A DNA stretch of 64,000 nucleotides, taken from a virus. Taxonomy: Duplodnaviria; Heunggongvirae; Uroviricota; Caudoviricetes. The notes under the pieces are model-generated. The model had not been told where the DNA came from. It searched no databases and worked only from the letters and a program-made list of their open reading frames with translations. The position numbers and the translations under genes were made by a program. Position 1 is the stretch's first letter; every line of letters starts with the position of its first letter. Shown here piece after piece: positions 3,583 through 39,731 of this stretch. Where the stretch lies: the IMG/VR virus record IMGVR_UViG_2675903278_000002; one strand, written 5' to 3'.

Positions 3583-4452
3583 ATGAACTTTACCAAACTG
3601 ACTGACCACCTGAAACTTGCCACCGATCGACTCATTGGATTTAAGCCAGAACCATATGAGTTGCATGAAGGCCATGGTGTAGCCACTGAAAGTATTTACA
3701 AGATGGTCGATCAGTTTCATGAACTCTTCCAGCATCCGAGACGCGTTATGCCGACACCAGAGCTGCTTCGTCTCCGTGCAAGCCTGATTCATGAAGAAGC
3801 TGTAGTGGAAGGTATTCCAGCCGCAATGAATGGGGATATTGAGCAACTGCTGGATGCAATGGCCGACTTTTTATACGTTGGTGTTGGTACGATGGTCGCC
3901 ATCAAAGGTGGTATTTCTACCGGCATGACCTATTACACGCAGGAACAGAGCATTGATCGCTTTATGCAGACAATTTTTGTGCCCGGTAACACTGTTTTCG
4001 ATGATATGGCAATGCCATTTCAGGAAGCTCGTGAGGCGTCATGTATGCTCGAAGAGCTGGCAGATAAACTTGAGAACAAGACTGTTAAGGATTCTGAGCT
4101 GATTCAGGAACTGCGCCGTGTCATGAACAAAATCTATGTGGCGTGCATGATGACCTATCGACTGGCTGATTTCCTCGGTATCAATGTAGTCGAGCTGGTT
4201 GGCGAAATTCATCGGTCTAACATGACAAAATTATGGCCTGCTGATGTTGAGGAACGTCGCCAGGCTGTGGCCAACTGCAAATACGACTCTTCAGATCTGG
4301 GATTCCGCCATGCTGATGGCACCGATAAGATGATCGGTTTTCGAATTTCCGATGGAAAGATTCTGAAGTCTCCAACCTATAGTGATGTCGATTTATCCTC
4401 CTTTGTTGAGCAAGCTAAAGCCTCAGCAATGTACGGAATGATCAAAAAATAA
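3583..4452 (+). CDS. MazG-like all-alpha NTP pyrophosphohydrolase (tandem-domain)
   Basis: EExxE...D metal-binding pattern (LIHEEAVVEG...EQLLDAMADFLYV) and C-terminal EIHRSNMTKL typical of the MazG/HisE-like family. SD GAAGGA lies upstream. Confidence 0.5.
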   Translation: MNFTKLTDHLKLATDRLIGFKPEPYELHEGHGVATESIYKMVDQFHELFQHPRRVMPTPELLRLRASLIHEEAVVEGIPAAMNGDIEQLLDAMADFLYVGVGTMVAIKGGISTGMTYYTQEQSIDRFMQTIFVPGNTVFDDMAMPFQEAREASCMLEELADKLENKTVKDSELIQELRRVMNKIYVACMMTYRLADFLGINVVELVGEIHRSNMTKLWPADVEERRQAVANCKYDSSDLGFRHADGTDKMIGFRISDGKILKSPTYSDVDLSSFVEQAKASAMYGMIKK

Positions 4453-4454
4453 TT

Positions 4455-4471
4455 GTAGGTAGTTATCTATC
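4455..4471. promoter_or_regulatory. Box B palindrome-family copy (degenerate)
   Basis: GTAGGTAGTTATCTATC, 3 nt after the stop codon. Same core as the copy at 45037. Confidence 0.45.
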
Positions 4472-4515
4472 TGTGTATATTGCGTTGGCGCGTTAAATTT
4501 CTGAAACAACTATTC

Positions 4516-4548
4516 GTTTTTGGTGGCCTATGGCCACCATTTTTTTAT
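4516..4548 (+). terminator. Rho-independent terminator
   Basis: TGGTGGCC-tat-GGCCACCA followed by TTTTTTT. Confidence 0.8.
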
Positions 4549-4591
4549 CTGTCTGGTCTTGTTCTCTCAATAAATGTAAACTCACGCAATG

Positions 4592-4609
4592 AATAAGTGG
4601 TTACTTATC
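4592..4609. promoter_or_regulatory. Box B palindrome copy
   Basis: AATAAGTggTTACTTATC, 15 nt upstream of the thyA GTG start. Confidence 0.55.
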
Positions 4610-4623
4610 TTTGTGAGGTTTTT

Positions 4624-5727
4624 GTGTCACTCCTTTTGAATCGTGAGCATACGAACGGTCAGGTAACAAACGCATCGTATGCAAAAGTTATTGAGACGGT
4701 GCTTAAAAGCGGCGTGCAGGCTGATGATCGCACAGGCACTGGTACTTTAAGCACCTGCTACGTTCCCTCTTACTACATGCTTACTGGTGGGACTGTGCCG
4801 CTTATTTCTGGAAAGGCGGTAAATCTTAAGCCACTGCTTGTCGAACTTGAGTGGTATCTGAAAGGCACGGGCAACATCCAATTTCTCAAGGATAACGGCG
4901 TTAAGATTTGGGATGCATGGGCCGATGAGAATGGCGATTTGGGGCCGGTTTACGGTAAGCAGTGGCGTCGATGGGAAGATACCCGCATCGTGAGCCATAG
5001 TGAATATCTGAGCAAGATCGCTACTTTCCGTGAACGCGGGTACAAAGTCGAGGGATACCTGGGTATCAGTGAAGATCGCGTAGTGCTGTCCCGTGAAATC
5101 GATCAGCTACAGCGTATTGTCGATACACTGCGCACGAACCCTACCGATCGTCGCATCATGCTTAACGCATGGAACGTAGGCGAGCTTGAGGATATGAAAC
5201 TGCCACCTTGCCACTTTGTCTTCTCTTTGTGGAGTCGTGAGCTGGATTTTGAAACCCGTTTAACGATGGCAACTGACATTGGTCTTCAACACAGTCGCCT
5301 CGGTTATGAGTCTATCTACACCAAGATGCTATACGATCTGGAGATGGACGGCAGTGTTACTGAAACTGAACTGGATGAACTTGGAATCCCCAAACGCATC
5401 CTCAACTCCTGCCTCGTACAGCGTAGCGTAGACACTTTTGTTGGTATGCCATTCAATATTGCTGGCTATGGCATTCTCACTCATTTTCTCGCGAAGATTA
5501 CGGGTCACATGGCCGGTGCATTTGTGCATTTTGGCTTTGACGTGCATTTATACAATAACCACATGGAAAGTGTGTGTGAGCTAATGAAACGACAGGCTCC
5601 AGAGCATTCAGATCCGGTCGTTATTTTCCCTCATGAATGGTCTGAGCTGGATGATTTCAAATGGGACGATATTCTGATTCTTGGCTATGACCCTCTACCG
5701 TGGATCAAGGTTCCAGTGGCGGTGTGA
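4624..5727 (+). CDS. thyA: Thymidylate synthase homologue with two large insertions
   Basis: Motifs DRTGTGT, WADENGDLGPVYGKQWR, LPPCH, QRSVD, PFNIAGY and DVHLYNNH are present. I moved the start to GTG 4624, which has GAGG 5 nt upstream (the track starts at 4597, inside Box B). Confidence 0.85.
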   Translation: MSLLLNREHTNGQVTNASYAKVIETVLKSGVQADDRTGTGTLSTCYVPSYYMLTGGTVPLISGKAVNLKPLLVELEWYLKGTGNIQFLKDNGVKIWDAWADENGDLGPVYGKQWRRWEDTRIVSHSEYLSKIATFRERGYKVEGYLGISEDRVVLSREIDQLQRIVDTLRTNPTDRRIMLNAWNVGELEDMKLPPCHFVFSLWSRELDFETRLTMATDIGLQHSRLGYESIYTKMLYDLEMDGSVTETELDELGIPKRILNSCLVQRSVDTFVGMPFNIAGYGILTHFLAKITGHMAGAFVHFGFDVHLYNNHMESVCELMKRQAPEHSDPVVIFPHEWSELDDFKWDDILILGYDPLPWIKVPVAV

Positions 5728-17897: not shown

Positions 17898-18353
17898 ATG
17901 AGTAACAAAATCGAAAATCCCGTAGTTCTCATTCACAAGCGCGAGAACCACGACTCCTATGCGGTGGCGATCACCAATGGGAGTCACGATTTTTACGATG
18001 GCCTGCTAATGGCCTCAGTGTCGCCTGATGAGGCAGACAACTCTTTTGCCGTCTTCGCTATGGTTGGTTACTACATGGCTGCTGAAATTGAGAAGTTGCG
18101 GGCGCAGAGAGACGCATTAGCGGCGGAGAATGCAGCCCTGAAAGAATCTGAGCGAGCATTCGATGCGATGTGTGCCGAGGAACACGGAGATAATTGGGTT
18201 AGCGAATTAACGGAGACTCCAGCCACCGATGCTTTTCTGGCTGAAGTACGTGCGCAGGGCGTGGAGATGTTTGCTGAGTGCGCATACACACTTGAACATC
18301 ATGATCACGCAGTAGCTTTTGCCGCTGAGCTTCGTACAGGAAATAAACAGTGA
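17898..18353 (+). CDS. Ead/Ea22-like protein
   Basis: Coiled-coil KLRAQRDALAAENAALKE plus ETPATDAFLAEVRAQGVE, which I recall from lambdoid Ea22-like proteins. Shared leader GAGAAAAACACATG. Confidence 0.5.
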   Translation: MSNKIENPVVLIHKRENHDSYAVAITNGSHDFYDGLLMASVSPDEADNSFAVFAMVGYYMAAEIEKLRAQRDALAAENAALKESERAFDAMCAEEHGDNWVSELTETPATDAFLAEVRAQGVEMFAECAYTLEHHDHAVAFAAELRTGNKQ

Positions 18354-18916
18354 ATGAGATTTACTACCTGACGTTACGTGAACGTTATTCACCAAAACCA
18401 GCGCCTAAATGCTCTGTTTGTGGCGAGGAAATGTCAATACAGCGCATATCTGGAGCACATGTTGTTTATGCCTGTTCCGGTGAGAGTGATGACGGATATT
18501 TTAAGATAGGGCGTACTTTTGCAGATGAACATTATGAAAAATCACGCGTAACAGTAGTTGATGATAGTGATCCCGATGTGATTGCACTGCTGGACGAACT
18601 GGATAAAAGACAGCAACACATCCGACGTCTTGAGCAGGAGAACGTAGAGATGGCCCTAACGCTTGAGAAACTGCGTGTTGAGCTGGAGACCGTTAAACAG
18701 CGGGAAAAGGATCTGTTTATGGAAAATGTTCGACTTAAGTCAGGTATAGCAGGTCTGATACACCTCGGTATTCGATATGCGAATGTCGAAGTCATGAAAA
18801 TAGCTGGAGATGCCCAGCTTTCTACTCCCTGTACTGACAGCATCATAAACAGTATTGCATCAGGCGTTTTCACCAAAGAGGGTCAGCATTATGAGAACAG
18901 TAGAAGTTCGCGCTGA
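18350..18916 (+). CDS. Ead/Ea22-like protein (Cys-pair plus coiled coil)
   Basis: GTGA overlap with the upstream gene. CSVCGEEM...YAC, followed by a leucine-rich coiled coil. Confidence 0.45.
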   Translation: MNEIYYLTLRERYSPKPAPKCSVCGEEMSIQRISGAHVVYACSGESDDGYFKIGRTFADEHYEKSRVTVVDDSDPDVIALLDELDKRQQHIRRLEQENVEMALTLEKLRVELETVKQREKDLFMENVRLKSGIAGLIHLGIRYANVEVMKIAGDAQLSTPCTDSIINSIASGVFTKEGQHYENSRSSR

Positions 18917-22403: not shown

Positions 22404-22560
22404 CCCGTCTCCTTTATTTTAATTTGCGCAATTGTCGCCTTGTAGTGTACTCCAGCTACGACATTTAATCATTTATGAGAAATGCTGTTATCACATGGCA
22501 GACATAAGGCCATTTTGTTACTATCAAGCCCCTTTTCACTACAAAGAAGTAATGCCTACT

Positions 22561-24594
22561 ATGACCCAAGTCGCGAAGAAAATTCTGGTGACGTGCGCGC
22601 TGCCGTACGCTAACGGCTCAATCCACCTCGGCCATATGCTGGAGCACATCCAGGCTGATGTCTGGGTTCGTTACCAGCGAATGCGCGGCCACGAGGTTAA
22701 TTTCATCTGTGCCGACGATGCCCACGGTACGCCGATCATGCTGAAAGCACAGCAGCTTGGTATCACACCGGAGCAGATGATTGGCGAAATGAGTCAGGAA
22801 CACCAGACTGATTTCGCAGGCTTTAACATCAGCTATGACAACTATCACTCGACGCACAGCGAAGAGAACCGTCAGTTGTCTGAGCTTATCTATACTCGCC
22901 TGAAAGAGAACGGTTTTATTAAAAACCGCACTATCTCTCAGTTGTACGACCCGGAAAAAGGCATGTTCCTGCCGGATCGTTTTGTAAAAGGCACCTGCCC
23001 GAAATGTAAAGCGCCAGATCAATACGGCGATAACTGTGAAGTCTGCGGCGCAACATATAGCCCGACTGAATTGATCGAGCCGAAATCGGTGGTTTCTGGC
23101 GCTACCCCGGTAATGCGTGATTCCGAACACTTCTTCTTTGATCTGCCTTCTTTCAGCGAAATGTTGCAGGCATGGACCCGCAGCGGCGCGTTGCAGGAGC
23201 AGGTGGCGAACAAAATGCAGGAATGGTTTGAATCCGGCCTGCAACAGTGGGATATCTCCCGAGATGCGCCTTACTTCGGTTTTGAAATTCCGAACGCGCC
23301 GGGCAAATATTTCTACGTCTGGCTGGACGCGCCGATTGGCTACATGGGTTCCTTCAAGAATCTGTGCGACAAGCGCGGCGATACCACCAGCTTCGATGAA
23401 TACTGGAAGAAAGACTCCACCGCCGAGCTGTACCACTTCATCGGTAAAGATATTGTTTACTTCCACAGCCTGTTCTGGCCTGCCATGCTGGAAGGCAGCA
23501 ACTTCCGCAAGCCGACCAACCTGTTTGTTCACGGCTATGTGACGGTGAACGGCGCGAAGATGTCCAAGTCTCGCGGCACCTTTATTAAAGCCAGCACCTG
23601 GCTGAATCATTTTGACGCCGACAGCCTGCGTTACTACTACACTGCGAAACTCTCTTCGCGCATTGATGATATCGATCTCAACCTGGAGGATTTCGTTCAG
23701 CGCGTGAATGCCGATATCGTGAACAAAGTGGTTAACCTGGCCTCCCGTAATGCAGGCTTTATCAACAAGCGTTTTGACGGCGTGCTGGCAAGCGAACTGG
23801 CTGACCCGCAACTGTACAAAACCTTTACTGATGCCGCTGAAGTGATTGGCGAAGCATGGGAAAGCCGCGAATTTGGTAAAGCTATCCGTGAAATCATGGC
23901 ATTGGCTGACCTGGCTAACCGCTATGTCGATGAACAGGCTCCGTGGGTGGTGGCGAAGCAGGAAGGACGCGATGCCGATCTGCAGGCGATTTGCTCTATG
24001 GGCATTAACCTGTTCCGCGTGCTGATGACGTACCTGAAGCCGGTACTGCCGAAACTGACTGAACGTGCAGAAGCATTCCTGAATACAGAACTGACCTGGG
24101 ATGGTATCCAGCAACCGCTGCTGGGCCATAAAGTAAATCCGTTCAAGGCACTGTATAACCGCATCGATATGAAGCAGGTTGAAGCACTGGTGGAAGCATC
24201 CAAAGAAGAAGTGAAAGCCACAGCCGCACCGGTAACTGGCCCACTGGCTGACGACCCGATTCAGGAAACTATCACCTTTGACGACTTCGCCAAAGTTGAC
24301 CTGCGCGTGGCGCTGATTGAAAACGCAGAGTTTGTAGAAGGTTCTGACAAACTGCTTCGCCTGACGCTGGATCTCGGTGGTGAAAAGCGTAATGTCTTCT
24401 CAGGCATCCGTTCCGCTTATCCAGATCCACAGGCACTGATTGGTCGTCACACCATTATGGTGGCTAACCTGGCACCACGTAAAATGCGCTTCGGTATCTC
24501 TGAAGGCATGGTGATGGCTGCTGGCCCCGGCGGGAAAGATATCTTCCTGTTAAGCCCGGATGCTGGTGCTAAACCTGGCCACCAGGTTAAGTAA
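22561..24594 (+). CDS. metG: Methionyl-tRNA synthetase (host-type, full length)
   Basis: 677 aa from ATG 22561 ([25 protein letters not shown]..., KMSKS). Only scattered substitutions relative to E. coli K-12 MetG as I recall it. The track ORF start at 22432 is upstream read-in. Confidence 0.97.
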
Positions 24595-24677: not shown

Positions 24678-24692
24678 AAAACAATTTGTTTT
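24678..24692. promoter_or_regulatory. Box A palindrome copy
   Basis: AAAACAATTTGTTTT. The extended context AACAATTTGTTTTCTGCCTT is shared with the copy at 29301. Confidence 0.6.
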
Positions 24693-24727
24693 CTGCCTTT
24701 TGTTGATGGAGATAATAAACCACATAA

Positions 24728-24743
24728 GAAAACAACTTGTTTT
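24728..24743. promoter_or_regulatory. Box A palindrome copy
   Basis: GAAAACAACTTGTTTT, 12 nt upstream of ATG 24756. Confidence 0.6.
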
Positions 24744-24755
24744 GGAGTGGTTGAA

Positions 24756-25055
24756 ATGTTGAACATTACCCAAGCCTACCAGGTGGCATTGATCAGCTCA
24801 TCTCATACATCAGAGGAAGATGCTCGCCGATTCATGATCGCAAGCAATGAGCTGGATTGGGTTTCACAAATTGAGTACGGTTGCATTGTCCACGCCGGGT
24901 TACAGGACGATGACTGGAAAGATGAGTTGCGTCGATATGGTATATCCGAGGGCGCGATTGCGAACATTCAGAAAGTACTTGATGTAGGCTTTGACTCTGT
25001 ACATTTTGATTGTGGTGCACCGGTCGTTGAAGGGCTAGAGTGCTGGCAATGGTAA
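24756..25055 (+). CDS. Hypothetical protein
   Basis: ATG 24756 has GGAG 8 nt upstream. 99 aa. Confidence 0.5.
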   Translation: MLNITQAYQVALISSSHTSEEDARRFMIASNELDWVSQIEYGCIVHAGLQDDDWKDELRRYGISEGAIANIQKVLDVGFDSVHFDCGAPVVEGLECWQW

Positions 25056-25091
25056 TCCGGCAATCGCTTCATACTAGACAACGGAGAATTT

Positions 25092-25277
25092 ATGCTTAAA
25101 GAAGACTCATATCTACTAAAGGCGCTTGAAATGCGTGGCGTTGAACCTACAGTGAAAAACGCTCACGATATCTACCTTCAGTTTTCACCGGAGCTGAAAC
25201 GGTTCATAAATCAATACGGGGTTAATGACTCAAGTGTTAAAGCAATGATAGATGATGAATTAGACCATCTCATCTAA
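25092..25277 (+). CDS. Small hypothetical protein
   Basis: 61 aa. SD GGAGA upstream. Confidence 0.45.
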   Translation: MLKEDSYLLKALEMRGVEPTVKNAHDIYLQFSPELKRFINQYGVNDSSVKAMIDDELDHLI

Positions 25278-25429
25278 TCGTTTCCTATGATAATGGTTTT
25301 CACTTTGAGATTGTTATTTTTCATAGCTAAAGCTGATGTTTGTGGAAGGTGGATTGATAAACGGATGCGTATTTAGGTTATACAAGTGAGAAAATTGATA
25401 ATATATAAACGCGATTTTTATGTGATGGA

Positions 25430-25999
25430 ATGGATGTGATGGAAACCCAGAACCAACAAACAAAACCTCTGAATAACATTTATGCGTGGATTCTAGCGTT
25501 CATGCCTTTCTTCTTTGGAGTATCGCCGGAAGAGTATACCAATTACGCTATTATAATTGGGGGTGTAACTACCATCGGTTTGTTAGTAGCTGACAGAATG
25601 GCTCTATCGGAGTCTGGCTGTGAACCACCTTCAATTCTATGGGGGGTATTCCTCCTGCCTGTCTATCTCTGGAAGCGCGCGACTATTACAAAAGGCAGCA
25701 GAGTGCCATTTATCATAATCGTTGCGTCGCTGGCTTGGATTATCTTCATCGGCATCCCACACAAGGACGAGGTTGCTCTTGAAGAAGCAGCCTGCCCTCT
25801 CGTGACAACTATTCTGAAAGAGAATAACGGTTCGACTGCACCAAAATGTATGAAGGTGACAATAGAGGACAAGGTGACGGATAAGTTCTATAGAGCAACG
25901 GCTACACTAGACAATGGTAATGACATTAACATTACTCTGGAACTTACCGGCGACAGGAACTTCTACGTCCGTGTTCCAAATGTTTATCTGAACAACTAA
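25430..25999 (+). CDS. Membrane protein (about 4 TM segments plus soluble C-terminal domain)
   Basis: Hydrophobic segments IYAWILAFMPFFF, AIIIGGVTTIGLLV, ILWGVFLLPVYLW and FIIIVASLAWIIFIGI. Lies in AT-rich surroundings. Confidence 0.5.
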   Translation: MDVMETQNQQTKPLNNIYAWILAFMPFFFGVSPEEYTNYAIIIGGVTTIGLLVADRMALSESGCEPPSILWGVFLLPVYLWKRATITKGSRVPFIIIVASLAWIIFIGIPHKDEVALEEAACPLVTTILKENNGSTAPKCMKVTIEDKVTDKFYRATATLDNGNDINITLELTGDRNFYVRVPNVYLNN

Positions 26000-26099
26000 C
26001 GGTTGCAACTTATTGATAATGGCGGTCACAATTTGATTCTTTTCTATAAGAACCCGTTGATCGCCACTACTCCCCTCCCATACCAGCAATCACATCATT

Positions 26100-26870
26100 A
26101 AATATCAATAGGTTATGGTTGTTTATACAAATAAGAAAACAACTAAATAACAGATCAACGAAACGTCAACGCTTTCACCCGATTTGGTCTAAAAAATTGA
26201 CGTTTTCACACATCACTTCTTATACCCGTAACTCTACGCAGCAGACATCGCCACAGCGTCCAATTTTCACCACAGACGACCCAACACACTACCAACAAAA
26301 ACACACGCTCAAAATCGCTCCCGTTGCGTTACACAACCATATAAACAACTTATTTTCAGGCATAACAAAACAACTAAATAACACACATGCCATTTCCAAA
26401 AACAACCAACCTCTTTATGGCAGGCTACCGAAAAGACCCACCTCTTCTCCCCAGGCTACCGGACAACCAACCTAACTTTCACAGGCAATCCGAAAACATT
26501 CATACGCGCGATACCCACGACACGCCATTACCCAAACAGCGAAGAAACACCAGAATCACTGAACCCCCAACGAAGCCTGTAACCGCAAGGCTTCTCTCAA
26601 TCCCAAAAGACACGAAACAGAACAATCACGGGAAACGCCATTACCCAACACACGAATAACTACAAAAGCCCTTCACGCACTCCAGACAAACAACTCAAAC
26701 ACAATAACGAAAGGAATCGCCCACCTGCCATTACTCCATACACGGAGAAGAACAATCACCAAAACGACGAGAACACCCCATAGAAGAACCACCGCAAAAC
26801 GAACGAAACCACATACACCGACAGAGAGAACAACACACCCAATTCACCAACAGAATTAGTCGCCGTATAG
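26100..26870 (+). other. A+C-skewed, G/T-poor non-coding tract
   Basis: By hand count, about 100 G in 780 nt, and 70-80% A+C in the lines I counted. Track ORFs here translate to low-complexity T/P/Q/N/H sequence. Confidence 0.6.
26421..26510 (+). repeat. Three tandem ~30-bp repeats (CAGGCTACCGnAnAAnCCnACCT...)
   Basis: Units start at 26421, 26452 and 26482. A related triplet lies at 30416-30500. Confidence 0.6.
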
Positions 26871-26981
26871 AACGTTCTGGAAGGAGTGAGTGTTAACGTC
26901 CATAGAGAGGTTGAGACAGATAAAACACGAATAAAACACAACATGTATAGCGAAGAAGCCAGGTATGTATAAGTGGGGAGA

Positions 26982-27007
26982 GAAGGAGGGGTGTCGCCTC
27001 CTTTTTC
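26982..27007 (+). terminator. Rho-independent terminator closing the A+C-rich tract
   Basis: AAGGAGG-ggtgtcg-CCTCCTT followed by TTT. Confidence 0.6.
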
Positions 27008-27069: not shown

Positions 27070-27205
27070 CAGGGAAAAGGCTGCATCCCGCTACAGAAAC
27101 GGCTGGGTTGCCTTCGGGGAACGGCTGGAGGTTTTCAGGGAAACGGTCGAGTTGCCTGTGTGGATTTCGGGAAAAGGCTCGATGCCGGTTCAGGAACGGT
27201 GGCGT
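27070..27205 (+). repeat. Iteron-like array: six direct repeats (G/C)GGAAA(A/C)GGCT
   Basis: The GG anchor of each repeat falls at 27079, 27101, 27123, 27145, 27176 and 27198, giving spacings of 22, 22, 22, 31 and 22 bp. Confidence 0.7.
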
Positions 27206-27342: not shown

Positions 27343-27489
27343 TCAGCGGGTCACAATCGATTTCAGTAGGTTTTCGGGGAGAAGAAAATTCTGCCCACCA
27401 GCCCTGCGGCGCGCGTAGAGCAGAATATCGTAAATACTGGTTCCGTGTCGTTCCCGGATACTCACTACCCAGCCTGGCTTTCCCGACAT
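27343..27489 (-). CDS. Possible 48-aa basic protein
   Basis: Internal ATG has AAAGGA 4 nt upstream and gives MSGKPGWVVSIRERHGTSIYDILLYARRRAGGQ... It is divergent from the 27583 gene. The track start at 27546 lies inside Box A. Confidence 0.3.
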   Translation of the reverse strand: MSGKPGWVVSIRERHGTSIYDILLYARRRAGGQNFLLPENLLKSIVTR

Positions 27490-27536
27490 AAAATCCTTTT
27501 CCGCCTTTGTCTTATTGCGATAATAACACCAACAAG

Positions 27537-27551
27537 TAAACAACATGTTTA
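27537..27551. promoter_or_regulatory. Box A palindrome copy
   Basis: TAAACAACATGTTTA, preceded by GATAATAACACCAACAAG (a shared -10-like context). Confidence 0.6.
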
Positions 27552-27582
27552 GACGTTATATAAACGAAGTGAGGATGAAGAG

Positions 27583-27801
27583 ATGATTAAGATGCCTGTG
27601 ACGGTTGAGGTGTGGGGCGTGGATTCCCTGGCTGAGTGTCTGGATGCAGTGGGGCCGGAGTTGTACCGCAAGTTGTGGTCGTTCGTCCCGGCAGAAGGGG
27701 AATCGCCCAAAGGGAAGGATATCTGGCACCTGCTGAGTGAAGATGAAAAGCGGGAGCTGGTGGACGCGGTACACAGCGAGTTCCCGGGCGACGAAGATTA
27801 A
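27583..27801 (+). CDS. Small acidic hypothetical protein (cassette 1)
   Basis: 72 aa. GAGGA lies 7 nt upstream. Confidence 0.5.
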   Translation: MIKMPVTVEVWGVDSLAECLDAVGPELYRKLWSFVPAEGESPKGKDIWHLLSEDEKRELVDAVHSEFPGDED

Positions 27802-27806
27802 GAGTG

Positions 27807-27830
27807 AGGCCACCAGCACGGTGGCTTTTG
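27807..27830 (+). terminator. Rho-independent terminator
   Basis: GCCACC-agcac-GGTGGC followed by TTTT. Confidence 0.7.
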
Positions 27831-27912
27831 TCGCTATTAACCTCCGGGCAGCGCAGCACCGTAACGATATACTTTGTGGCCGTTTTCTTACTGGTATTGT
27901 TTACGCAATTCA

Positions 27913-27927
27913 GAAAACAACATGTTT
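27913..27927. promoter_or_regulatory. Box A palindrome copy
   Basis: GAAAACAACATGTTT, 12 nt upstream of ATG 27940. The ~65-bp upstream context is duplicated at 28352-28411. Confidence 0.6.
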
Positions 27928-27939
27928 AAGGATTGCGTT

Positions 27940-28269
27940 ATGTTTGCAAATATCGACATCAACCAAATCAAGAAAATGACTCAAAAAGAGTTTGACCAGT
28001 TTTATGAGTTAGAAGGTTGGTCTTCCACTCTGATCAATTCGCGGTGGGTGCTTGAGCTGATGACTCGTGATGACGCACCTGCTTTGATGATTTGCGACAT
28101 GGGTGAAGATGCTGACTTTATGGATATGAGCGAATTTTGTGTGGACACATACAACCGCAGCCAGAAGTACTACTTCACATGCGATAGCGAAAATGACGTG
28201 ATTTCTAAGGTCTATCTTCACCTCGTCCAGCATTGGGACGTTCAGGAGTTTCTTGAAGTATTCGAGTAA
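27940..28269 (+). CDS. Small acidic hypothetical protein (cassette 2)
   Basis: ATG 27940 has AAGGA 7 nt upstream. 109 aa. Confidence 0.5.
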   Translation: MFANIDINQIKKMTQKEFDQFYELEGWSSTLINSRWVLELMTRDDAPALMICDMGEDADFMDMSEFCVDTYNRSQKYYFTCDSENDVISKVYLHLVQHWDVQEFLEVFE

Positions 28270-28278
28270 CCCCAACCA

Positions 28279-28304
28279 AAGCCAGCATTGCTGGCTTAAT
28301 TTCT
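28279..28304 (+). terminator. Hairpin terminator (weak U-tract)
   Basis: AAGCCAGC-att-GCTGGCTT followed by aatttctc. Confidence 0.5.
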
Positions 28305-28396
28305 CTATAGCCGCAGGGAAGAACCTGCATATCGCTCATGCACCTGATCAATATGCTTTGTAGCCGTTTTCTTACTGGTATTATTTACGCCATTGA

Positions 28397-28411
28397 GAAA
28401 ACAAGTTGTTT
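28397..28411. promoter_or_regulatory. Box A palindrome copy
   Basis: GAAAACAAGTTGTTT, 11 nt upstream of ATG 28423. Confidence 0.6.
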
Positions 28412-28422
28412 ACGGAGTTGTG

Positions 28423-28734
28423 ATGAAAAAATCATTGGTTCTTGGTCTGGACAAAGACCAGAAGAGAAAAGAGAAGCCTGCGCTGGTTGCTCAATTAACT
28501 TTGCTGGACATCGTTGCCAATGGAACCTCTATTCGTCTGTTCCGTGAAACAGCGGTGTCTTTCGATAAAAACACCTTTACTCGTTATGTAATGAATGTTC
28601 GTCGCCAGCGTGGAAAAGGCTGGGTGGCATTTCAAAGAATGTGGCCGGAACATCAGCTCGAACTGGCTTTGATGGAAGTTAACCGCGTGGCCCAGCAAGA
28701 GATTCAGAGAGCATCAGTGATGGCAATAGCCTGA
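28423..28734 (+). CDS. Small basic hypothetical protein (cassette 3)
   Basis: ATG 28423 has GGAG 5 nt upstream. 103 aa. Confidence 0.5.
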   Translation: MKKSLVLGLDKDQKRKEKPALVAQLTLLDIVANGTSIRLFRETAVSFDKNTFTRYVMNVRRQRGKGWVAFQRMWPEHQLELALMEVNRVAQQEIQRASVMAIA

Positions 28735-28768
28735 TAATGTGCAAGTGGTAATTAGTCGACAGTACGAC

Positions 28769-28797
28769 AGCCCCGCCATCCTTACGGGGCTTTTTTG
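28769..28797 (+). terminator. Rho-independent terminator
   Basis: GCCCCG...CGGGGC followed by TTTTTT. Confidence 0.85.
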
Positions 28798-28801
28798 TAT
28801 T

Positions 28802-28817
28802 GTAAGTACATACTTAT
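28802..28817. promoter_or_regulatory. Box B palindrome copy
   Basis: GTAAGTACATACTTAT. This is the only cassette in the array that carries Box B instead of Box A. Confidence 0.55.
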
Positions 28818-28860
28818 GATCATAGAATATAAAAATAACCAAAACACTACGGAGAGTGAA

Positions 28861-29256
28861 ATGACCGTTAAACGCGAAAAACTGACAGTTGATGTTTACT
28901 ATGCCTCTGAAACCGCCGAAGGTAAGAATGTGGCAAAAATCACCGTTGTTACGTACAACACCGAAACTGGTGCCGAAGTCCAGGCCAGTACGATCGTGCG
29001 TAAAGGTGATGCCTCCGACGGCGAGTACGCGACTCAATACCAGTCCATTCTCGATGCAACTGACCCGCTGCTGCTGAAAATCGAGAACTACTTCCGCCAG
29101 GTTGATGAAGAGGTGTTTGAAACCATGATGAATATGGTTAACACCGTATTCGCCTCCAACCTGAATACCAACACTACCTGGATTGGTCAGTACGGCCTGC
29201 GCATTACCTCTGGCATTCCTGCCGACACCTTAATCCCTGAAAGCGTATTCGCTTAA
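28861..29256 (+). CDS. Hypothetical protein (cassette 4)
   Basis: ATG 28861 has GGAG 6 nt upstream. 131 aa. Confidence 0.5.
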   Translation: MTVKREKLTVDVYYASETAEGKNVAKITVVTYNTETGAEVQASTIVRKGDASDGEYATQYQSILDATDPLLLKIENYFRQVDEEVFETMMNMVNTVFASNLNTNTTWIGQYGLRITSGIPADTLIPESVFA

Positions 29257-29264
29257 TCCTCTTT

Positions 29265-29292
29265 AAATGGCGCGTAAACCGCGCCATTTTCT
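29265..29292 (+). terminator. Rho-independent terminator
   Basis: AATGGCGCG-taaac-CGCGCCATT followed by TTTC. Confidence 0.8.
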
Positions 29293-29300
29293 TATGCCCG

Positions 29301-29315
29301 ATAACAATTTGTTTT
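29301..29315. promoter_or_regulatory. Box A palindrome copy
   Basis: ATAACAATTTGTTTT. Confidence 0.55.
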
Positions 29316-29373
29316 CTGCCTTATCTGATTTGTGAAAATGATTTCACTGAAGCAACTTAATAAGGAAACCATC

Positions 29374-29748
29374 ATGGGACTTGATATCTATATCGAGACA
29401 CAGCCTAAAAACGATCTGAATAACGAGGCATCCAGAAAGCAGGTTGCTTACTTCCGTAAGTTCAATGCGCTCGTTGGGTGGATGGAGCGCAACGTAGGTG
29501 AAGTCGAAAATTGTGAGCTTTTAGAATTAACGATGAATGACATTTGTTTTCTGAAGGCTCATTTGATGCACATAAACGAAAGTAATTGCGAAGAGTACTT
29601 GCCTACCCGGGAAGGTTTTTTCTTCGGCAGTCAGGAGTACGATGAAGGTTACTGGCATGATGTGGGGCAGTTGAAAGAGCTTGTGGAAGATCTGATTAAG
29701 AACCACGACTTTCACAATAACAGACTGACCTTCTGCGCCTGGTGGTAA
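29374..29748 (+). CDS. Hypothetical protein (cassette 5)
   Basis: ATG 29374 has AAGGA 7 nt upstream. Begins MGLDIYIETQ... 124 aa. Confidence 0.5.
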   Translation: MGLDIYIETQPKNDLNNEASRKQVAYFRKFNALVGWMERNVGEVENCELLELTMNDICFLKAHLMHINESNCEEYLPTREGFFFGSQEYDEGYWHDVGQLKELVEDLIKNHDFHNNRLTFCAWW

Positions 29749-29750
29749 AT

Positions 29751-29894
29751 ATGGGCGATTTCAAGAAACGCCTGAAGGAAAGAGCCGAGATGGTCAGAAA
29801 GCAAAACGCCTCTTCTGTCATCAGATACGCAAGGCAGTTTAGTCGCAACAACAAATCAGTTGAGGAAAAGATCCTTAGCGTAATCGGTCGATAA
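29751..29894 (+). CDS. 47-aa basic microprotein (not in ORF track)
   Basis: ATG lies 2 nt after the upstream stop. I translated it by hand as MGDFKKRLKERAEMVRKQNASSVIRYARQFSRNNKSVEEKILSVIGR. Confidence 0.4.
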   Translation: MGDFKKRLKERAEMVRKQNASSVIRYARQFSRNNKSVEEKILSVIGR

Positions 29895-29901
29895 TTATTA
29901 A

Positions 29902-29921
29902 GGCCACCAGCATTGGTGGTC
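29902..29921 (+). terminator. Conserved GGCCACCA/TGGTGG hairpin (no U-tract)
   Basis: The context ATTAAGGCCACCAgcatTGGTGGtCTTAAATGAC is nearly identical to that at 30367-30400. Confidence 0.45.
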
Positions 29922-30049
29922 TTAAATGACTTTTAATAACCGAAGGTTAGTTTGAAACCTGGCTATCAACTTCCAGAACCTTTCTTGTGTATTCAGCCTG
30001 TATTAACTTCTTTTATGCCTTATCTACACTGCGATAATTACACCAACAA

Positions 30050-30064
30050 GAAAACAACATGTTT
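30050..30064. promoter_or_regulatory. Box A palindrome copy
   Basis: GAAAACAACATGTTT, preceded by GATAATTACACCAACAAG. Confidence 0.6.
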
Positions 30065-30083
30065 ACGCAGTGAGGATATGCTC

Positions 30084-30365
30084 ATGACTGATTTCACCAT
30101 TACCCCTAAAGCACAAAATGTATTTCTTGAATCATGGCTGGACTTGCCGGAAACAGAACAGCAAGAAATGGATCATGTGGATTATGACGAGCAGGTAAGC
30201 ACGCGATTCTTCCACTTTGAGGGATGCGTTTACGACATTGCTGACTTCATGCGAGATGACCGCTTCCCTGAATGGCACGCCAGTTATCCACTAAACGCCT
30301 TTGCCATGCTGATGATCCGTGTGGATGATTCAGGGGATACCATCGACATCGGTCTGCTCCACTAA
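30084..30365 (+). CDS. Small acidic hypothetical protein (cassette 6)
   Basis: ATG 30084 has GAGGA 7 nt upstream. 93 aa. Confidence 0.5.
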   Translation: MTDFTITPKAQNVFLESWLDLPETEQQEMDHVDYDEQVSTRFFHFEGCVYDIADFMRDDRFPEWHASYPLNAFAMLMIRVDDSGDTIDIGLLH

Positions 30366-30370
30366 AGATT

Positions 30371-30394
30371 AAGGCCACCAATGCTGGTGGCCTT
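30371..30394 (+). terminator. Conserved hairpin (perfect 10-bp stem, no U-tract)
   Basis: AAGGCCACCA-atgc-TGGTGGCCTT. Confidence 0.45.
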
Positions 30395-30415
30395 AAATGA
30401 CCATCCTGTTTCCCG

Positions 30416-30500
30416 CAGGCTAAAAACACCAACCTCTTACCTCCAGGCAACCGACAAACCCACCTGTTCCCGTCCGGCTACCGCAACTTTCCACTTTGAC
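30416..30500 (+). repeat. Three tandem ~29-bp repeats related to those at 26421-26510
   Basis: CAGGCTAAAAACACCAACCT.., CAGGCAACCGACAAACCCACCT.., CCGGCTACCGCAACTTTCCAC. Units start at 30416, 30444 and 30474. Confidence 0.55.
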
Positions 30501-30534
30501 GCCTTATTCGTACAACGATAATTAACACCAACAA

Positions 30535-30549
30535 GAAAACAATTTGTTA
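30535..30549. promoter_or_regulatory. Box A palindrome copy
   Basis: GAAAACAATTTGTTA, preceded by TTGACG-n15-GATAAT (sigma70-like). Confidence 0.6.
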
Positions 30550-30569
30550 TTTACGATAAGGAATTAATC

Positions 30570-31052
30570 ATGAATTTTATCGCTACTGTAAACGCACCCG
30601 CACATGGCAATATCGCTGTAACGTTCTCTGACATTGAAAAACGAGTACTTGGTGCATGGCGCGACAATGAGACGGTAGAACTGTCAGCACAAGAAAAATG
30701 CATTATTGCACGCGACATCATTGGCAATCGTCGTTACTCGCGGGTATTTGAGAAAGCGTATGTGGTAAATTCTGGGTTCGGAACGTTCGTCTTTCCGGTG
30801 CGCTCCGGGCGATTCTGCCAGTCCAAGCTGATTGAGTTCGCTACGCAGATTTCTGTCTGGATTAAAACTCAATCGTCGTTCAAATTTTCCGACGATGAAG
30901 CAGTATCGCAGGGGATGCGGATCGCCAACAATGCGATTAAATGCAAAAACATTACGTATACCGCTGGCGTTGATACATGGAAACTGTTTTGCGCTAACTT
31001 TATGCTGAATGTATACGCAAGCAACCGCATCCACATCCTTGATGGCGTGTAA
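30570..31052 (+). CDS. Hypothetical protein (cassette 7)
   Basis: 160 aa. SD AAGGA upstream. Confidence 0.5.
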   Translation: MNFIATVNAPAHGNIAVTFSDIEKRVLGAWRDNETVELSAQEKCIIARDIIGNRRYSRVFEKAYVVNSGFGTFVFPVRSGRFCQSKLIEFATQISVWIKTQSSFKFSDDEAVSQGMRIANNAIKCKNITYTAGVDTWKLFCANFMLNVYASNRIHILDGV

Positions 31053-31058
31053 CTGAGA

Positions 31059-31084
31059 AGAGGGCCAGAAACGGCCCTTTCTCT
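31059..31084 (+). terminator. Rho-independent terminator
   Basis: AGGGCC-agaaac-GGCCCT followed by TTCTC. The loop contains the iteron core CAGAAACGGC. Confidence 0.6.
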
Positions 31085-31099
31085 ATAGCCACCAGCTGC

Positions 31100-31180
31100 C
31101 GCAGGGAAATTTTCAGAAACGGCGAGGAACGTATTCATAAGCCGACGGGAAACGGCCAGGATTTTTTCGGGAAACGGCTG
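31100..31180 (+). repeat. Second iteron-like set (GGGAAACGGC family)
   Basis: GCAGGGAAAT, CAGAAACGGCG, CGGGAAACGGCC and CGGGAAACGGCTG. The last two are 22 bp apart. Confidence 0.55.
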
Positions 31181-33419: not shown

Positions 33420-33944
33420 TCAAAAAGGCAAAATTCGTTCAACCCAATCGAACAAAACAACTATTTTTCTACCGTTCTCGACACGTAGTGTAACCTGACA
33501 AGCATCTGCGCCTGCTGACACCCCCTCAATTTCACGGCCATCCGCCATGTACACCCTTATAGATTTGTTTGCTTTGTAGGCTTGGTTGCAAATTGCAAAA
33601 AAATCGCGGCGTGATGGCCGATTATCGACATAATCAGGGTGAACTGTTAGTCGACCTTTGAAATCGTGAGCGATACTGTCAACCACACCTGATTCAATTG
33701 TACTAATGCGTTCAAGTGGGAGCCTTATACGATTTTCTTTGTCAAAAGGGGCTGGGCAAAGGTCAACTTTGTTACGAGATGGCATGAGGCCATAAACGTA
33801 CATGCAAAACGCCTGGCCATCTTCGAGAGTGACCCTTACAGGAATTTGTTCTCTGCGCCAGAACATCAGTAGTTTTTCAACGTTAGTGTAATCTCGCGGC
33901 CAGAGTTCAGCTTGGATACCGTAGGTAATATCTTTGGTTGTCAT
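33420..33944 (-). CDS. Hypothetical protein (two beta-rich halves, possibly Sm-like)
   Basis: Start uncertain (33944 or 34022). Segments VRVTLEDGQAFCMYVYG and IRVYMADGREIEGV...VTLRVENGRKIVVLFDWVERI. Confidence 0.45.
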   Translation of the reverse strand: MTTKDITYGIQAELWPRDYTNVEKLLMFWRREQIPVRVTLEDGQAFCMYVYGLMPSRNKVDLCPAPFDKENRIRLPLERISTIESGVVDSIAHDFKGRLTVHPDYVDNRPSRRDFFAICNQAYKANKSIRVYMADGREIEGVSAGADACQVTLRVENGRKIVVLFDWVERILPF

Positions 33945-33948
33945 ATCA

Positions 33949-34413
33949 TCACAGAGTTGTTGGCAGAATGTCGATGTCACCAGAATTGCTGGTAAACACC
34001 CTGAACGCTTTTGTGTCTCCATTCTTCAGAGTCGTTTCTCGCTCTTGACGAGCGGGGTTTAGAGCACATAAACCTGCACCTTCAAGAGATGCACCCACAA
34101 TTAATTCTCCGGCATTTAAATGGAAAGTCGCTTTTTCGCCTGTAGCCAGTTTTGCGACAGTTTCGCCGTTGATGAAAATGGAAGCATCACATCCAGCTCC
34201 TACAAAACCTGTGTCTCTCATTACCACCAACGTAGCTGGCGCTGCGCTTTGATACTTGAACACTTTGGCCTGCGGTGCTGGTTTGGCGTCATGGATTGAT
34301 ATTGGGTGTGATTGGCACGCGGCAAGCATCAACACTGGTAACGTTAGTAGAGGGAGAAGCGAGTATTTCATGATAGTTTTAGAACAGAAAGTGAACAGTA
34401 TGGGAGACTTCAT
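33949..34413 (-). CDS. Lipoprotein
   Basis: Lipobox LPVLMLAA-C. GGGAGA SD lies before ATG 34413. Confidence 0.6.
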   Translation of the reverse strand: MKSPILFTFCSKTIMKYSLLPLLTLPVLMLAACQSHPISIHDAKPAPQAKVFKYQSAAPATLVVMRDTGFVGAGCDASIFINGETVAKLATGEKATFHLNAGELIVGASLEGAGLCALNPARQERETTLKNGDTKAFRVFTSNSGDIDILPTTL

Positions 34414-39651: not shown

Positions 39652-39666
39652 GAAAACAAGTTGGTT
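39652..39666. promoter_or_regulatory. Box A palindrome copy (degenerate)
   Basis: GAAAACAAGTTGGTT. Confidence 0.5.
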
Positions 39667-39676
39667 AGCAGATGCA

Positions 39677-39692
39677 GTAAACAAGTTGTTTT
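39677..39692. promoter_or_regulatory. Box A palindrome copy
   Basis: GTAAACAAGTTGTTTT, 39 nt upstream of the terS ATG. Confidence 0.6.
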
Positions 39693-39721
39693 AGAGCGCA
39701 TGGACGCGCTCTGTGTGTTTT
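39693..39721 (+). terminator. Leader hairpin upstream of the packaging operon (terminator-like)
   Basis: AGAGCGC-atggac-GCGCTCT followed by gtgtgTTTT. The U-tract is not contiguous with the stem. Confidence 0.4.
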
Positions 39722-39731
39722 AGAGGGATCT

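Follow-up and report, generated by a model that had tools for sequence, protein, structure and literature searches.

How an array of small genes, each apparently furnished with a promoter and a terminator of its own, is controlled and renewed within a temperate element is the question raised by a 64,000-nt stretch of viral DNA (IMG/VR record IMGVR_UViG_2675903278_000002, Caudoviricetes), which in its full length is called here the window. Between positions 27,530 and 31,090 the window carries eight plus-strand genes, named G1 to G8, in seven transcription units. An initial annotation, made from the sequence alone, had read this array as autonomous cassettes with near-identical non-coding modules, forming a shufflable accessory island whose conserved flanks allow cassette exchange. 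The analysis presented here makes it likely that the array consists of swappable early-gene cassettes, placed under a regulon that appears to extend over the entire element.

About 3.8 kb around the array are 99.5% identical to non-mobilisable Escherichia coli plasmids of about 110 kb, and matches to the array region are also found in plasmids of Klebsiella, Enterobacter, Yersinia, Salmonella and Citrobacter. The same region is 98.6% identical to Escherichia phage Cyrano, an SSU5-like phage-plasmid of strain LF82 (PMC9928086). On these identities, to the plasmids and to Cyrano, the window is assigned to a phage-plasmid of the SSU5/pHCM2 type. For the comparison of relatives 90 loci were collected and their open reading frames (ORFs) clustered; 74 loci span the array (42 from close and 32 from distant relatives), breakpoints were mapped in 53 close relatives, and G8, present in all the relatives used, served as anchor. 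The ORF families f17, f24, f27, f64, f77 and f81, spurious products of a simple gene caller, were discarded after inspection.

Anatomy of the array and its element-wide palindrome

The coding character of the array was assessed by the variation at codon position 3, divided by the mean of positions 1 and 2, across relatives; this ratio ranges from 1.75 to 4.7 for G1-G8, and the excess at third positions in all eight indicates that they are real coding genes. A 46-aa ORF at 30381-30521 has a ratio of 1.09 and no codon periodicity, and is not coding. The products of G1, G2, G4, G5 and G7 are acidic (pI 4.1-4.75), which bears out the strongly acidic proteins noticed in the initial annotation, while those of G3, G6 and G8 are basic. 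Promoters and terminators were judged by sequence, and hairpin energies were computed; each unit ends in a stable GC-rich hairpin of -12 to -20 kcal/mol. The promoter, gene and hairpin listed for each of the seven units were all found in place, and so were the near-identical modules: a repeat of 77 nt with 84% identity (27856-27932 versus 28340-28416), the sequence GATAAT(T)AACACCAACAAG, named Box A, at 27519, 30033 and 30517, two hairpin modules of 39 nt with 82% identity (29892-29930 versus 30363-30401), and a TTCTCTATAGCC tail after the hairpins, at 28300 and 31079. An Rfam scan of the array gave no family matches, and a search for tandem repeats returned nothing relevant.

The core shared by the promoter modules is a 13-bp palindrome, AAACAA-N-(T/A)TGTTT. 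When up to one mismatch to AAACAANWTGTTT is allowed, the window holds 31 strand hits, where 1.63 are expected; none of 100 shuffled sequences reaches 31. The sites lie 11-67 nt upstream of plus-strand start codons; the sole exception, at 23446, has one mismatch, lies inside the gene for methionyl-tRNA synthetase (MetRS) and is a chance hit. The genes behind the palindromes include nrdB, a TerB-like gene, several genes of unknown function, a DUF5983 gene, six of the seven array units and, at the head of the late/packaging operon, a gene whose orthologue in Cyrano carries the annotation terminase small subunit; elsewhere in the Cyrano genome, four further sites precede ParA, the replicative helicase, cobT and gene 58. 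A role of the palindrome as RNA hairpin was ruled out by inspection, as at most five A-U-rich pairs could form, and to our knowledge it matches none of the consensus sites of E. coli transcription factors. A full-text literature search with the motif sequences returned only unrelated primers, and no description of the palindrome, or of the variable region described below, was found in the searchable literature.

Over 422 distinct segments from relatives, the consensus of the module is O1 [AAACAAnTTGTTT] - TCTGCCTTTTnTTATnTGnGATAAT - AACACCAACAAGA - O2 [AAACAAnTTGTTT] - A.GGA..ATG, where O1 and O2 are two copies of the palindrome with their centres exactly 51 bp apart; a compact form is O1-TCTGCCTT..TGnGATAAT-AACACCAACAAGA-O2. 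The upstream copy is frequent, not universal; in the G7 module of the window it is degenerate and in relatives it is intact. TGnGATAAT corresponds to an extended -10 element and, if it is taken as the -10, O2 spans about +7 to +19 and O1 about -44 to -32. The initial annotation had assigned Box A to six units and a different Box B to one. Both boxes are real, but Box B has the design of Box A, with TGGTATTGT or TGGTATTAT and the same palindrome, and the presence of ACACCAACAAGA in Box B of distant relatives places the two in one family; moreover, Box B precedes both G2 and G3, and G4 is the lone unit outside the family, having a palindrome-free TTGTAA-17-TAGAAT promoter. A complete two-operator module also occurs outside the array, before the DUF5983 gene at the start of the variable region (Table 1).

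The module is kept in relatives from Klebsiella, Yersinia (pMT1), Buttiauxella and Kluyvera, whose G8 proteins are 67-70% identical, and intergenic regulatory sequence is conserved as well as coding sequence, or better. Such conservation across genera indicates selection on function, and not merely recent copying. Because the palindrome itself is conserved across genera, it can be read as the mark of an element-wide regulon that is not specific to the array, and the similarity of the modules would be explained mainly by their function as promoter plus operator. Thus, of the conserved flanks proposed for exchange, one part holds, since the junctions between cassettes do fall inside the modules, but these appear to serve the regulon of the whole element and not to be dedicated recombination flanks.

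Control of the array in the lysogen

In RNA-seq data from the LF82 lysogen in LB, the Cyrano orthologues of G2-G8, G6 excepted, have 5.7-25 normalised counts, the background of the element being a median of 9.8 (PMC9928086). The orthologue of G6, CYRAN_109, reaches 58 counts, about six times the background, and passed the cut-off used by the authors for morons (PMC9928086); as G5 itself is silent, an internal promoter or a stable RNA fragment may be responsible. Expression is several-fold higher inside macrophages, and Cyrano is induced by ciprofloxacin (PMC9928086).

The palindrome would be bound by a dimeric regulator encoded by the element, most likely a repressor. A repressor is favoured because the near-universal O2 lies downstream of the predicted start, the extended -10 is a good one, and the genes are silent in the lysogen. 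Among the lysogen-expressed genes screened, no DNA-binding protein could be tied to the palindrome, and the genes other than those named below are without a recognisable DNA-binding domain; no recognisable domains were found in CYRAN_43 and CYRAN_117, both highly expressed in the lysogen, and a HMMER search with G3, considered as a possible winged-helix regulator, retrieved only close, lineage-restricted relatives. CYRAN_43 (184 aa; 18269-18823 of locus L090, outside the window) is by far the most expressed gene of the element in the lysogen, at about 7,000 counts where the median is 10, and adjoins the integrase and CI-like repressor genes.

An FljA-like protein encoded within the window was set aside as candidate regulator: FljA represses phase-1 flagellin at the post-transcriptional level, but the upstream copy of the operator, O1, is not transcribed. 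The gene for this protein, on the minus strand at 33420-34022, clearly belongs with FljA by homology (PF03614, E = 2.5e-84); the product ends in a weak Hfq-like tail, and such a gene is unexpected in a phage-plasmid.

Several observations count against the proposed control. The CI-like CYRAN_45 has a control region of its own with different palindromes, and was set aside as regulator because AAACAA-N-TTGTTT is missing from it; the two ParB-like genes were set aside because they are silent in the lysogen. The ParA operon carries the palindrome and yet is expressed in the lysogen, so that the site may modulate rather than silence, or may be an activator site. Furthermore, the assignment of the -10 rests on the consensus and on positional conservation, and two hairpins of the type AAGGCCACC...GGTGGCCTT, which are without a clear T-run, may be RNA-stabilising or processing elements, and not terminators.

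The palindrome could indeed be an activator site, or part of a promoter not recognised by sigma-70, in which case the silence of the lysogen would derive from an absent activator; we regard this as the less probable reading, though one with appreciable weight. It would account for the expression of the ParA operon and for the lack of a lysogen-expressed DNA-binding protein that could be tied to the site, and the upstream copy near -38 resembles the position of class II activators. However, the near-universal copy falls beyond the predicted start (about +7 to +19), a position typical for repressors and unusual for activators, and a good extended -10 normally needs no activator.

Dispersed operators of this kind are known in other plasmid-type genomes: those of the P1 C1 repressor are scattered over the genome and asymmetric, and RK2 KorB has twelve 13-bp palindromic OB sites. 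In a similar way, one short site occurs here about 20 times over a plasmid-type genome of about 110 kb, at replication, partition and accessory promoters; its 13-bp 6-1-6 geometry recalls the OB sites, and its upstream copy lies near -38 as in those of class I. Conversely, the sequence of the site is unrelated to both, the P1 operators are asymmetric, and a KorB-like role is unsupported, since the ParB-like genes of the element are not expressed in the lysogen. The likeness to KorB and P1 C1 operators would be one of resemblance only.

Cassette turnover among relatives

The gene order u1 ... [G1] [G2] G3 G4 [G5 G6] [G7] G8, where brackets enclose variable genes, is collinear in the 90 loci, and 19 combinations of cassettes are found among the 74 that span the array, which is therefore not invariant among relatives. 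G3, G4 and G8 are core; G1, G2, G5/G6 and G7 are variable. Among the 42 close and 32 distant relatives, respectively, G1 was found in 13 and 27, G5 in 34 and 6, and G7 in 23 and 31, while G2 and G6 are confined to the E. coli clade; all four combinations of presence and absence of G1 and G7 are seen among close relatives. The breakpoints fall into three classes, all inside the modules. G1 is absent from 22 of the 53 close relatives, with the junction in an overlap of 8-21 nt inside the palindrome box, and in relatives without it the upstream half of the G1 module would drive G2; G7 is absent from 17, with the junction in a 34-nt hairpin module; G5/G6 are absent from two, with the junction in a 22-nt promoter-upstream module. 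The G5 promoter module is the breakpoint not only of this deletion but also of replacements.

Indeed, a 46-aa gene substitutes for G5/G6 in some relatives, and locus L058 has an inserted 310-aa gene with a copy of the duplicated hairpin module that follows G7 on either side. This gene and a 232-aa gene have their leader (GCGATAATTATCACATCRAAAACAAACGAGGAATTAAAAATG) and terminator in common, but their proteins are unrelated. The 310-aa cassette (GC 0.36) and G1 (GC 0.58) both deviate from the composition of the element. The G1/G2 slots of other clades hold two further families (f15 and f80) or a lipoprotein (f88), and none of these three is present in the E. coli clade. The variable region reaches upstream to about 25,055, where a slot named u2/u3 has at least four alternatives. 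In some genera one of these is a GIY-YIG endonuclease-like gene (3847-4812 of locus L009, equivalent to 25055-26013 of the window); homing-type nucleases are typical of the hyperplastic regions of T4 as well.

The idea of a shufflable island has thus to be narrowed: relatives differ by whole cassettes with breakpoints in the modules, but no shuffling was seen in the 90 loci. Turnover is a slot-wise gain, loss and replacement, as the collinear order indicates, and not a free shuffling. The extent of exchange should not be overstated, since collinearity limits it, most insertions and deletions could be simple repeat-mediated deletions, and true gains are seen for a handful of cassettes only. These features agree with an ordinary conserved regulon without exchange, in which the boxes would reflect one regulator and cassettes would be lost passively, in one direction, by deletion between direct repeats; clean deletions joined within repeats are the differences seen most often, and the modules show across genera the kind of conservation that functional sites have. 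We nevertheless hold this explanation unlikely. One slot, with the same leader and terminator, has unrelated occupants (G5 plus G6, or the 46-aa, 232-aa and 310-aa genes), and one insertion shows a duplicated hairpin module; moreover, the distribution of G2 and G6 in one clade and of f15, f80 and f88 in others, and the four G1/G7 combinations in close relatives, do not fit with losses in one direction.

Morons, in the concept of Hendrix and colleagues, are autonomous promoter-gene-terminator units between phage genes, sometimes with deviant GC. The array units share this anatomy and, in places (G1 and the 310-aa cassette), the deviant composition, and the G6 orthologue is above the moron cut-off in LF82; they could therefore be lysogenic-conversion genes, expressed from the resident plasmid-prophage to the benefit of the host. 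However, morons are expressed from a repressed prophage, whereas in LF82 every array orthologue measured, except that of G6, stays at background or close to it. In addition, the operator found upstream of replication, nucleotide-metabolism and late genes is present in six of the seven array promoters, which points to co-regulation with the phage programme and not to constitutive prophage expression. These data render the moron explanation improbable.

Integron cassettes are characterised by attC sites, an adjacent integron integrase and the lack of own promoters; the array differs in that there is no integrase in or next to it, the genes have their own promoters, the breakpoints are heterogeneous and there is no Rfam match. 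A site-specific system, integron- or lox-like, in which the palindrome would be the site for a tyrosine recombinase of the element, is hardly credible: although a palindrome box stands exactly at either end of the G1 cassette and the element encodes a tyrosine integrase (CYRAN_44), the integrase gene is in the other half of the genome, other breakpoints lie in hairpin and promoter-upstream modules and not at palindromes, a 6-1-6 palindrome has no spacer such as that of the core sites loxP and attC, no attC-like sites are present, the cassettes bring their own promoters, and the palindrome is found before invariant core genes as well.

The reading that we prefer is that of swappable cassettes under the regulon of the element. 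The array would form the distal portion of a hyperplastic region of accessory early genes, at about 24.6-31.1 kb of the window, built of single-gene transcription units with five parts each. An extended -10 sigma-70 promoter (TGnGATAAT or TGGTATTRT) would be followed by a 13-bp operator, AAACAA-N-TTGTTT, centred at about +13, often with a second copy 51 bp apart at about -38, and then by a short leader with a Shine-Dalgarno sequence, a small ORF and a GC-rich hairpin. An element-encoded dimeric regulator, most likely a repressor, would bind the palindrome; as the same site is found at partition, replication, nucleotide-metabolism and late promoters, the cassettes would be wired into the programme of the element itself, silent in the lysogen and presumably expressed early after induction or infection. 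Near-identical modules of 13-77 bp bracket every cassette, and homologous recombination between them would delete, insert or replace cassettes, leaving a functional promoter and terminator at the junction. The genes annotated in Cyrano include T4-like UvsW and UvsY, a gp32-like single-stranded DNA-binding protein, RecA, SbcCD and RuvC; the T4-like UvsW/UvsY/gp32/RecA machinery may carry out this step, and its presence makes an efficient recombination over short homologies plausible. The anatomy, the occurrence of the motif over the whole element, the conservation of the module in several genera and the cassette polymorphism with its junctions in the modules are directly seen in the sequences, while promoter and terminator activity, repressor binding, timing of expression, recombination machinery and protein functions are parts of the scheme that we infer.

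The closest known analogue is the system of PeSL cassettes, although the array would not be a member of it by descent. In the hyperplastic regions of T4-type phages, small ORFan genes lie between promoter and stem-loop motifs, and it is at these motifs that genes are inserted, deleted or replaced (Arbiol et al. 2010, PMC2839356; Comeau et al. 2014, PMC4122927), and recombination between neighbouring motifs yields mini-circles that are encapsidated (PMC2839356, PMC4122927). The array has in common with them a conserved intergenic composite of sigma-70-like promoter and stem-loop, here defined by sequence only, the clustering of small, mostly ORFan genes, of which G1, G2, G5/G6 and G7 are dispensable in natural relatives, the presence of insertion, deletion or replacement breakpoints inside the motifs (here of three classes), and T4-like recombination proteins encoded by the element. 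On the other hand, the host of the array is a temperate siphovirus and plasmid, not a virulent T4-like myovirus, and the motifs are unrelated in sequence. The promoter module of the array contains one or two 13-bp palindromic operators and recurs at core partition, replication and late promoters; its consensus also differs from the T4 early promoter consensus. Breakpoints use three parts of the module, with homology down to 8-21 nt.

Products, neighbouring features and significance

Scans of the array proteins and of the alternative cassettes with Pfam, PHROGs and PADLOC assigned no function, and no recognised anti-defence gene was found in the array by these means, no dedicated anti-defence library having been used. 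A sequence search against solved structures with G4, G5, G7 and G8 gave nothing at an E-value below 0.1. G3, G4, G7 and G8 are confined to the SSU5-like lineage: an exhaustive HMMER search for G3 gave 16 representative homologues, all at least 47% identical, homologues of G8 occur in SSU5-like phages only, and G7 has 35 clusters whose named sources are all Enterobacterales hosts, many on contigs of about 105-112 kb. The G7 family is named 'ABC transporter' in RefSeq/UniRef; this name is unsupported and looks like a propagated annotation error. Structure prediction with AlphaFold2, suggested for the products by the initial annotation, gave a confident model for G5 (pLDDT 94) and an unusable one for G7 (pLDDT 56).

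G5 has 78 clusters of homologues, with identity down to 28%. In an IncI-like plasmid, a homologue with 37% identity is placed two genes upstream of ArdA; another, 47% identical, is directly upstream of KlcA/ArdB-family and MPTase-PolyVal genes in a TraI_2 conjugative element, and further homologues sit in early or nucleotide-metabolism regions of lytic phages. Because of this proximity to ArdA or KlcA/ArdB-type genes, a counter-restriction role can be suggested, on circumstantial grounds, for G5 alone among the eight genes. In the anti-defence clusters of conjugative-plasmid leading regions (ArdA, KlcA/ArdB, ArdC), the genes are likewise small, often acidic, accessory and expressed early, and G5 homologues occur near them in two different conjugative elements; the array differs in having no recognised anti-defence gene, and in its predicted operator-controlled double-strand promoters, theirs being single-strand promoters. 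The link is one of guilt by association and concerns one of eight genes.

Table 1. Genes and predicted regulatory features of the array, with two related modules elsewhere in the window
Feature	Position	Strand	Details
G1 promoter/operator module (Box A)	27488..27551	+	extended -10 TGCGATAAT 27516-27524, then AACACCAACAAG, palindrome O2 AAACAACATGTTT 27538-27550
G1, 72 aa, variable cassette	27583..27801	+	pI 4.4; GC 0.58; phrog_6757 (function unknown)
G1 terminator hairpin	27807..27832	+	GCCACC-AGCAC-GGTGGC then TTTT; -15.9 kcal/mol
G2 promoter/operator module (Box B)	27856..27932	+	TGGTATTGT 27892-27900, palindrome 27915-27927
G2, 109 aa, E. coli clade only	27940..28269	+	pI 4.2; 41/42 close, 0/32 distant relatives
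G2 terminator	28279..28311	+	hairpin 28279-28297, then common TTCTCTATAGCC tail
G3 promoter/operator module (Box B copy)	28340..28416	+	TGGTATTAT, palindrome AAACAAGTTGTTT 28399-28411
G3, 103 aa, core	28423..28734	+	pI 10.5; in 73/74 loci
G3 intrinsic terminator	28770..28796	+	GCCCCG...CGGGGC then TTTTTT; highly conserved
G4 promoter, sigma-70-like	28800..28828	+	TTGTAA-17-TAGAAT, palindrome-free; kept in 62 distinct sequences
G4, 131 aa, core	28861..29256	+	pI 4.4; mosaic internal segment 28886-29164 in 9 relatives
G4 terminator	29265..29293	+	AAATGGCGCG-TAAAC-CGCGCCATTT
G5 promoter module	29302..29345	+	O1 TAACAATTTGTTT 29302-29314, TCTGCCTTATCT, extended -10 TGTGAAAAT 29331-29339; downstream O2 degenerate
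G5, 124 aa	29374..29748	+	pI 4.75; sole array cassette with a broad family; confident AlphaFold2 model
G6, 47 aa	29751..29894	+	basic; translationally coupled to G5
Hairpin module after G6	29892..29930	+	TTAAGGCCACCAGCATTGGTGGTCTTAA then ATGAC; left breakpoint of G7 deletion
G7 promoter/operator module (Box A)	30002..30065	+	degenerate O1, TGCGATAAT 30030-30038, palindrome 30052-30064
G7, 93 aa, variable cassette	30084..30365	+	pI 4.1
Hairpin module after G7	30363..30401		perfect 12-bp stem; terminator-like score on both strands; right breakpoint of G7 deletion
Conserved C/A-rich non-coding stretch upstream of G8	30402..30500	+	kept across genera; non-periodic 46-aa ORF
G8 promoter/operator module (Box A)	30494..30549	+	GATAAT 30517-30522, palindrome AAACAATTTGTTA 30537-30549
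G8, 160 aa, core	30570..31052	+	pI 9.2
G8 terminator	31061..31090	+	hairpin, then common TTCTCTATAGCC tail
Complete two-operator module outside the array	24679..24742	+	O1 24679-24691, GATAAT, O2 24730-24742, centres 51 bp apart
Two palindromes in the leader of the first late/packaging-operon gene	39654..39691	+	25 bp apart

Other features were observed around the array. The stretch at 30402-30500 has internal CAGGCTAnnnnAAnAnCCCACC repeats and resembles 26398-26473; an antisense small RNA is conceivable there, as the hairpin at its left end is terminator-like on both strands. Short direct repeats of the GGGAAACGGCT type, with an iteron- or centromere-like look, flank the array (27072-27179 and 31147-31179), four upstream and two downstream. 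About 850 nt at 26100-26960 are extremely G-poor and A/C-rich on the plus strand (GC skew about -0.45 to -0.50, AT skew up to +0.62); an operator-bearing promoter-like module (palindrome 26343-26355) lies just before its start, and a strong terminator (26980-27007) closes it. The ORFs annotated as CYRAN_103 and CYRAN_104 in its equivalent do not behave as coding, and a long non-coding RNA is possible. Immediately upstream of the variable region a full-length MetRS gene (22432-24594) is present, which was detected in 21 of the 90 loci. At 39654-39730 the palindrome pair is followed by a GAGCGC...GCGCTC hairpin and a T-rich tract, so that attenuation or antitermination of the late genes is possible.

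Phage-plasmids of the SSU5 group are common in E. coli, Shigella, Klebsiella, Salmonella Typhi and Yersinia pestis, and their regulation is essentially unstudied. A recent survey recorded few recognised anti-defence systems in these elements, which appear almost devoid of such genes. The operator/promoter consensus maps the transcription units of the element and points to a missing regulator; as a speculation, to which we would give rather low odds, one regulator acting on AAACAA-N-TTGTTT may run much of the early, partition, replication and late transcription in SSU5-like phage-plasmids (relatives of pMT1 and pHCM2), the operator modules doubling as a recombination scaffold by which counter-defence genes are swapped under early control, with G5 as a DNA-mimic-like anti-restriction protein. 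Current concepts are not overturned by the findings on the array. The variable region is now delimited, and its cassettes are an obvious place to look for early functions in host takeover or counter-defence, G5 being the best to start with; if the reading proposed here is right, modular exchange through regulatory cassettes, so far described in virulent T4-type phages, would extend to a temperate phage-plasmid.

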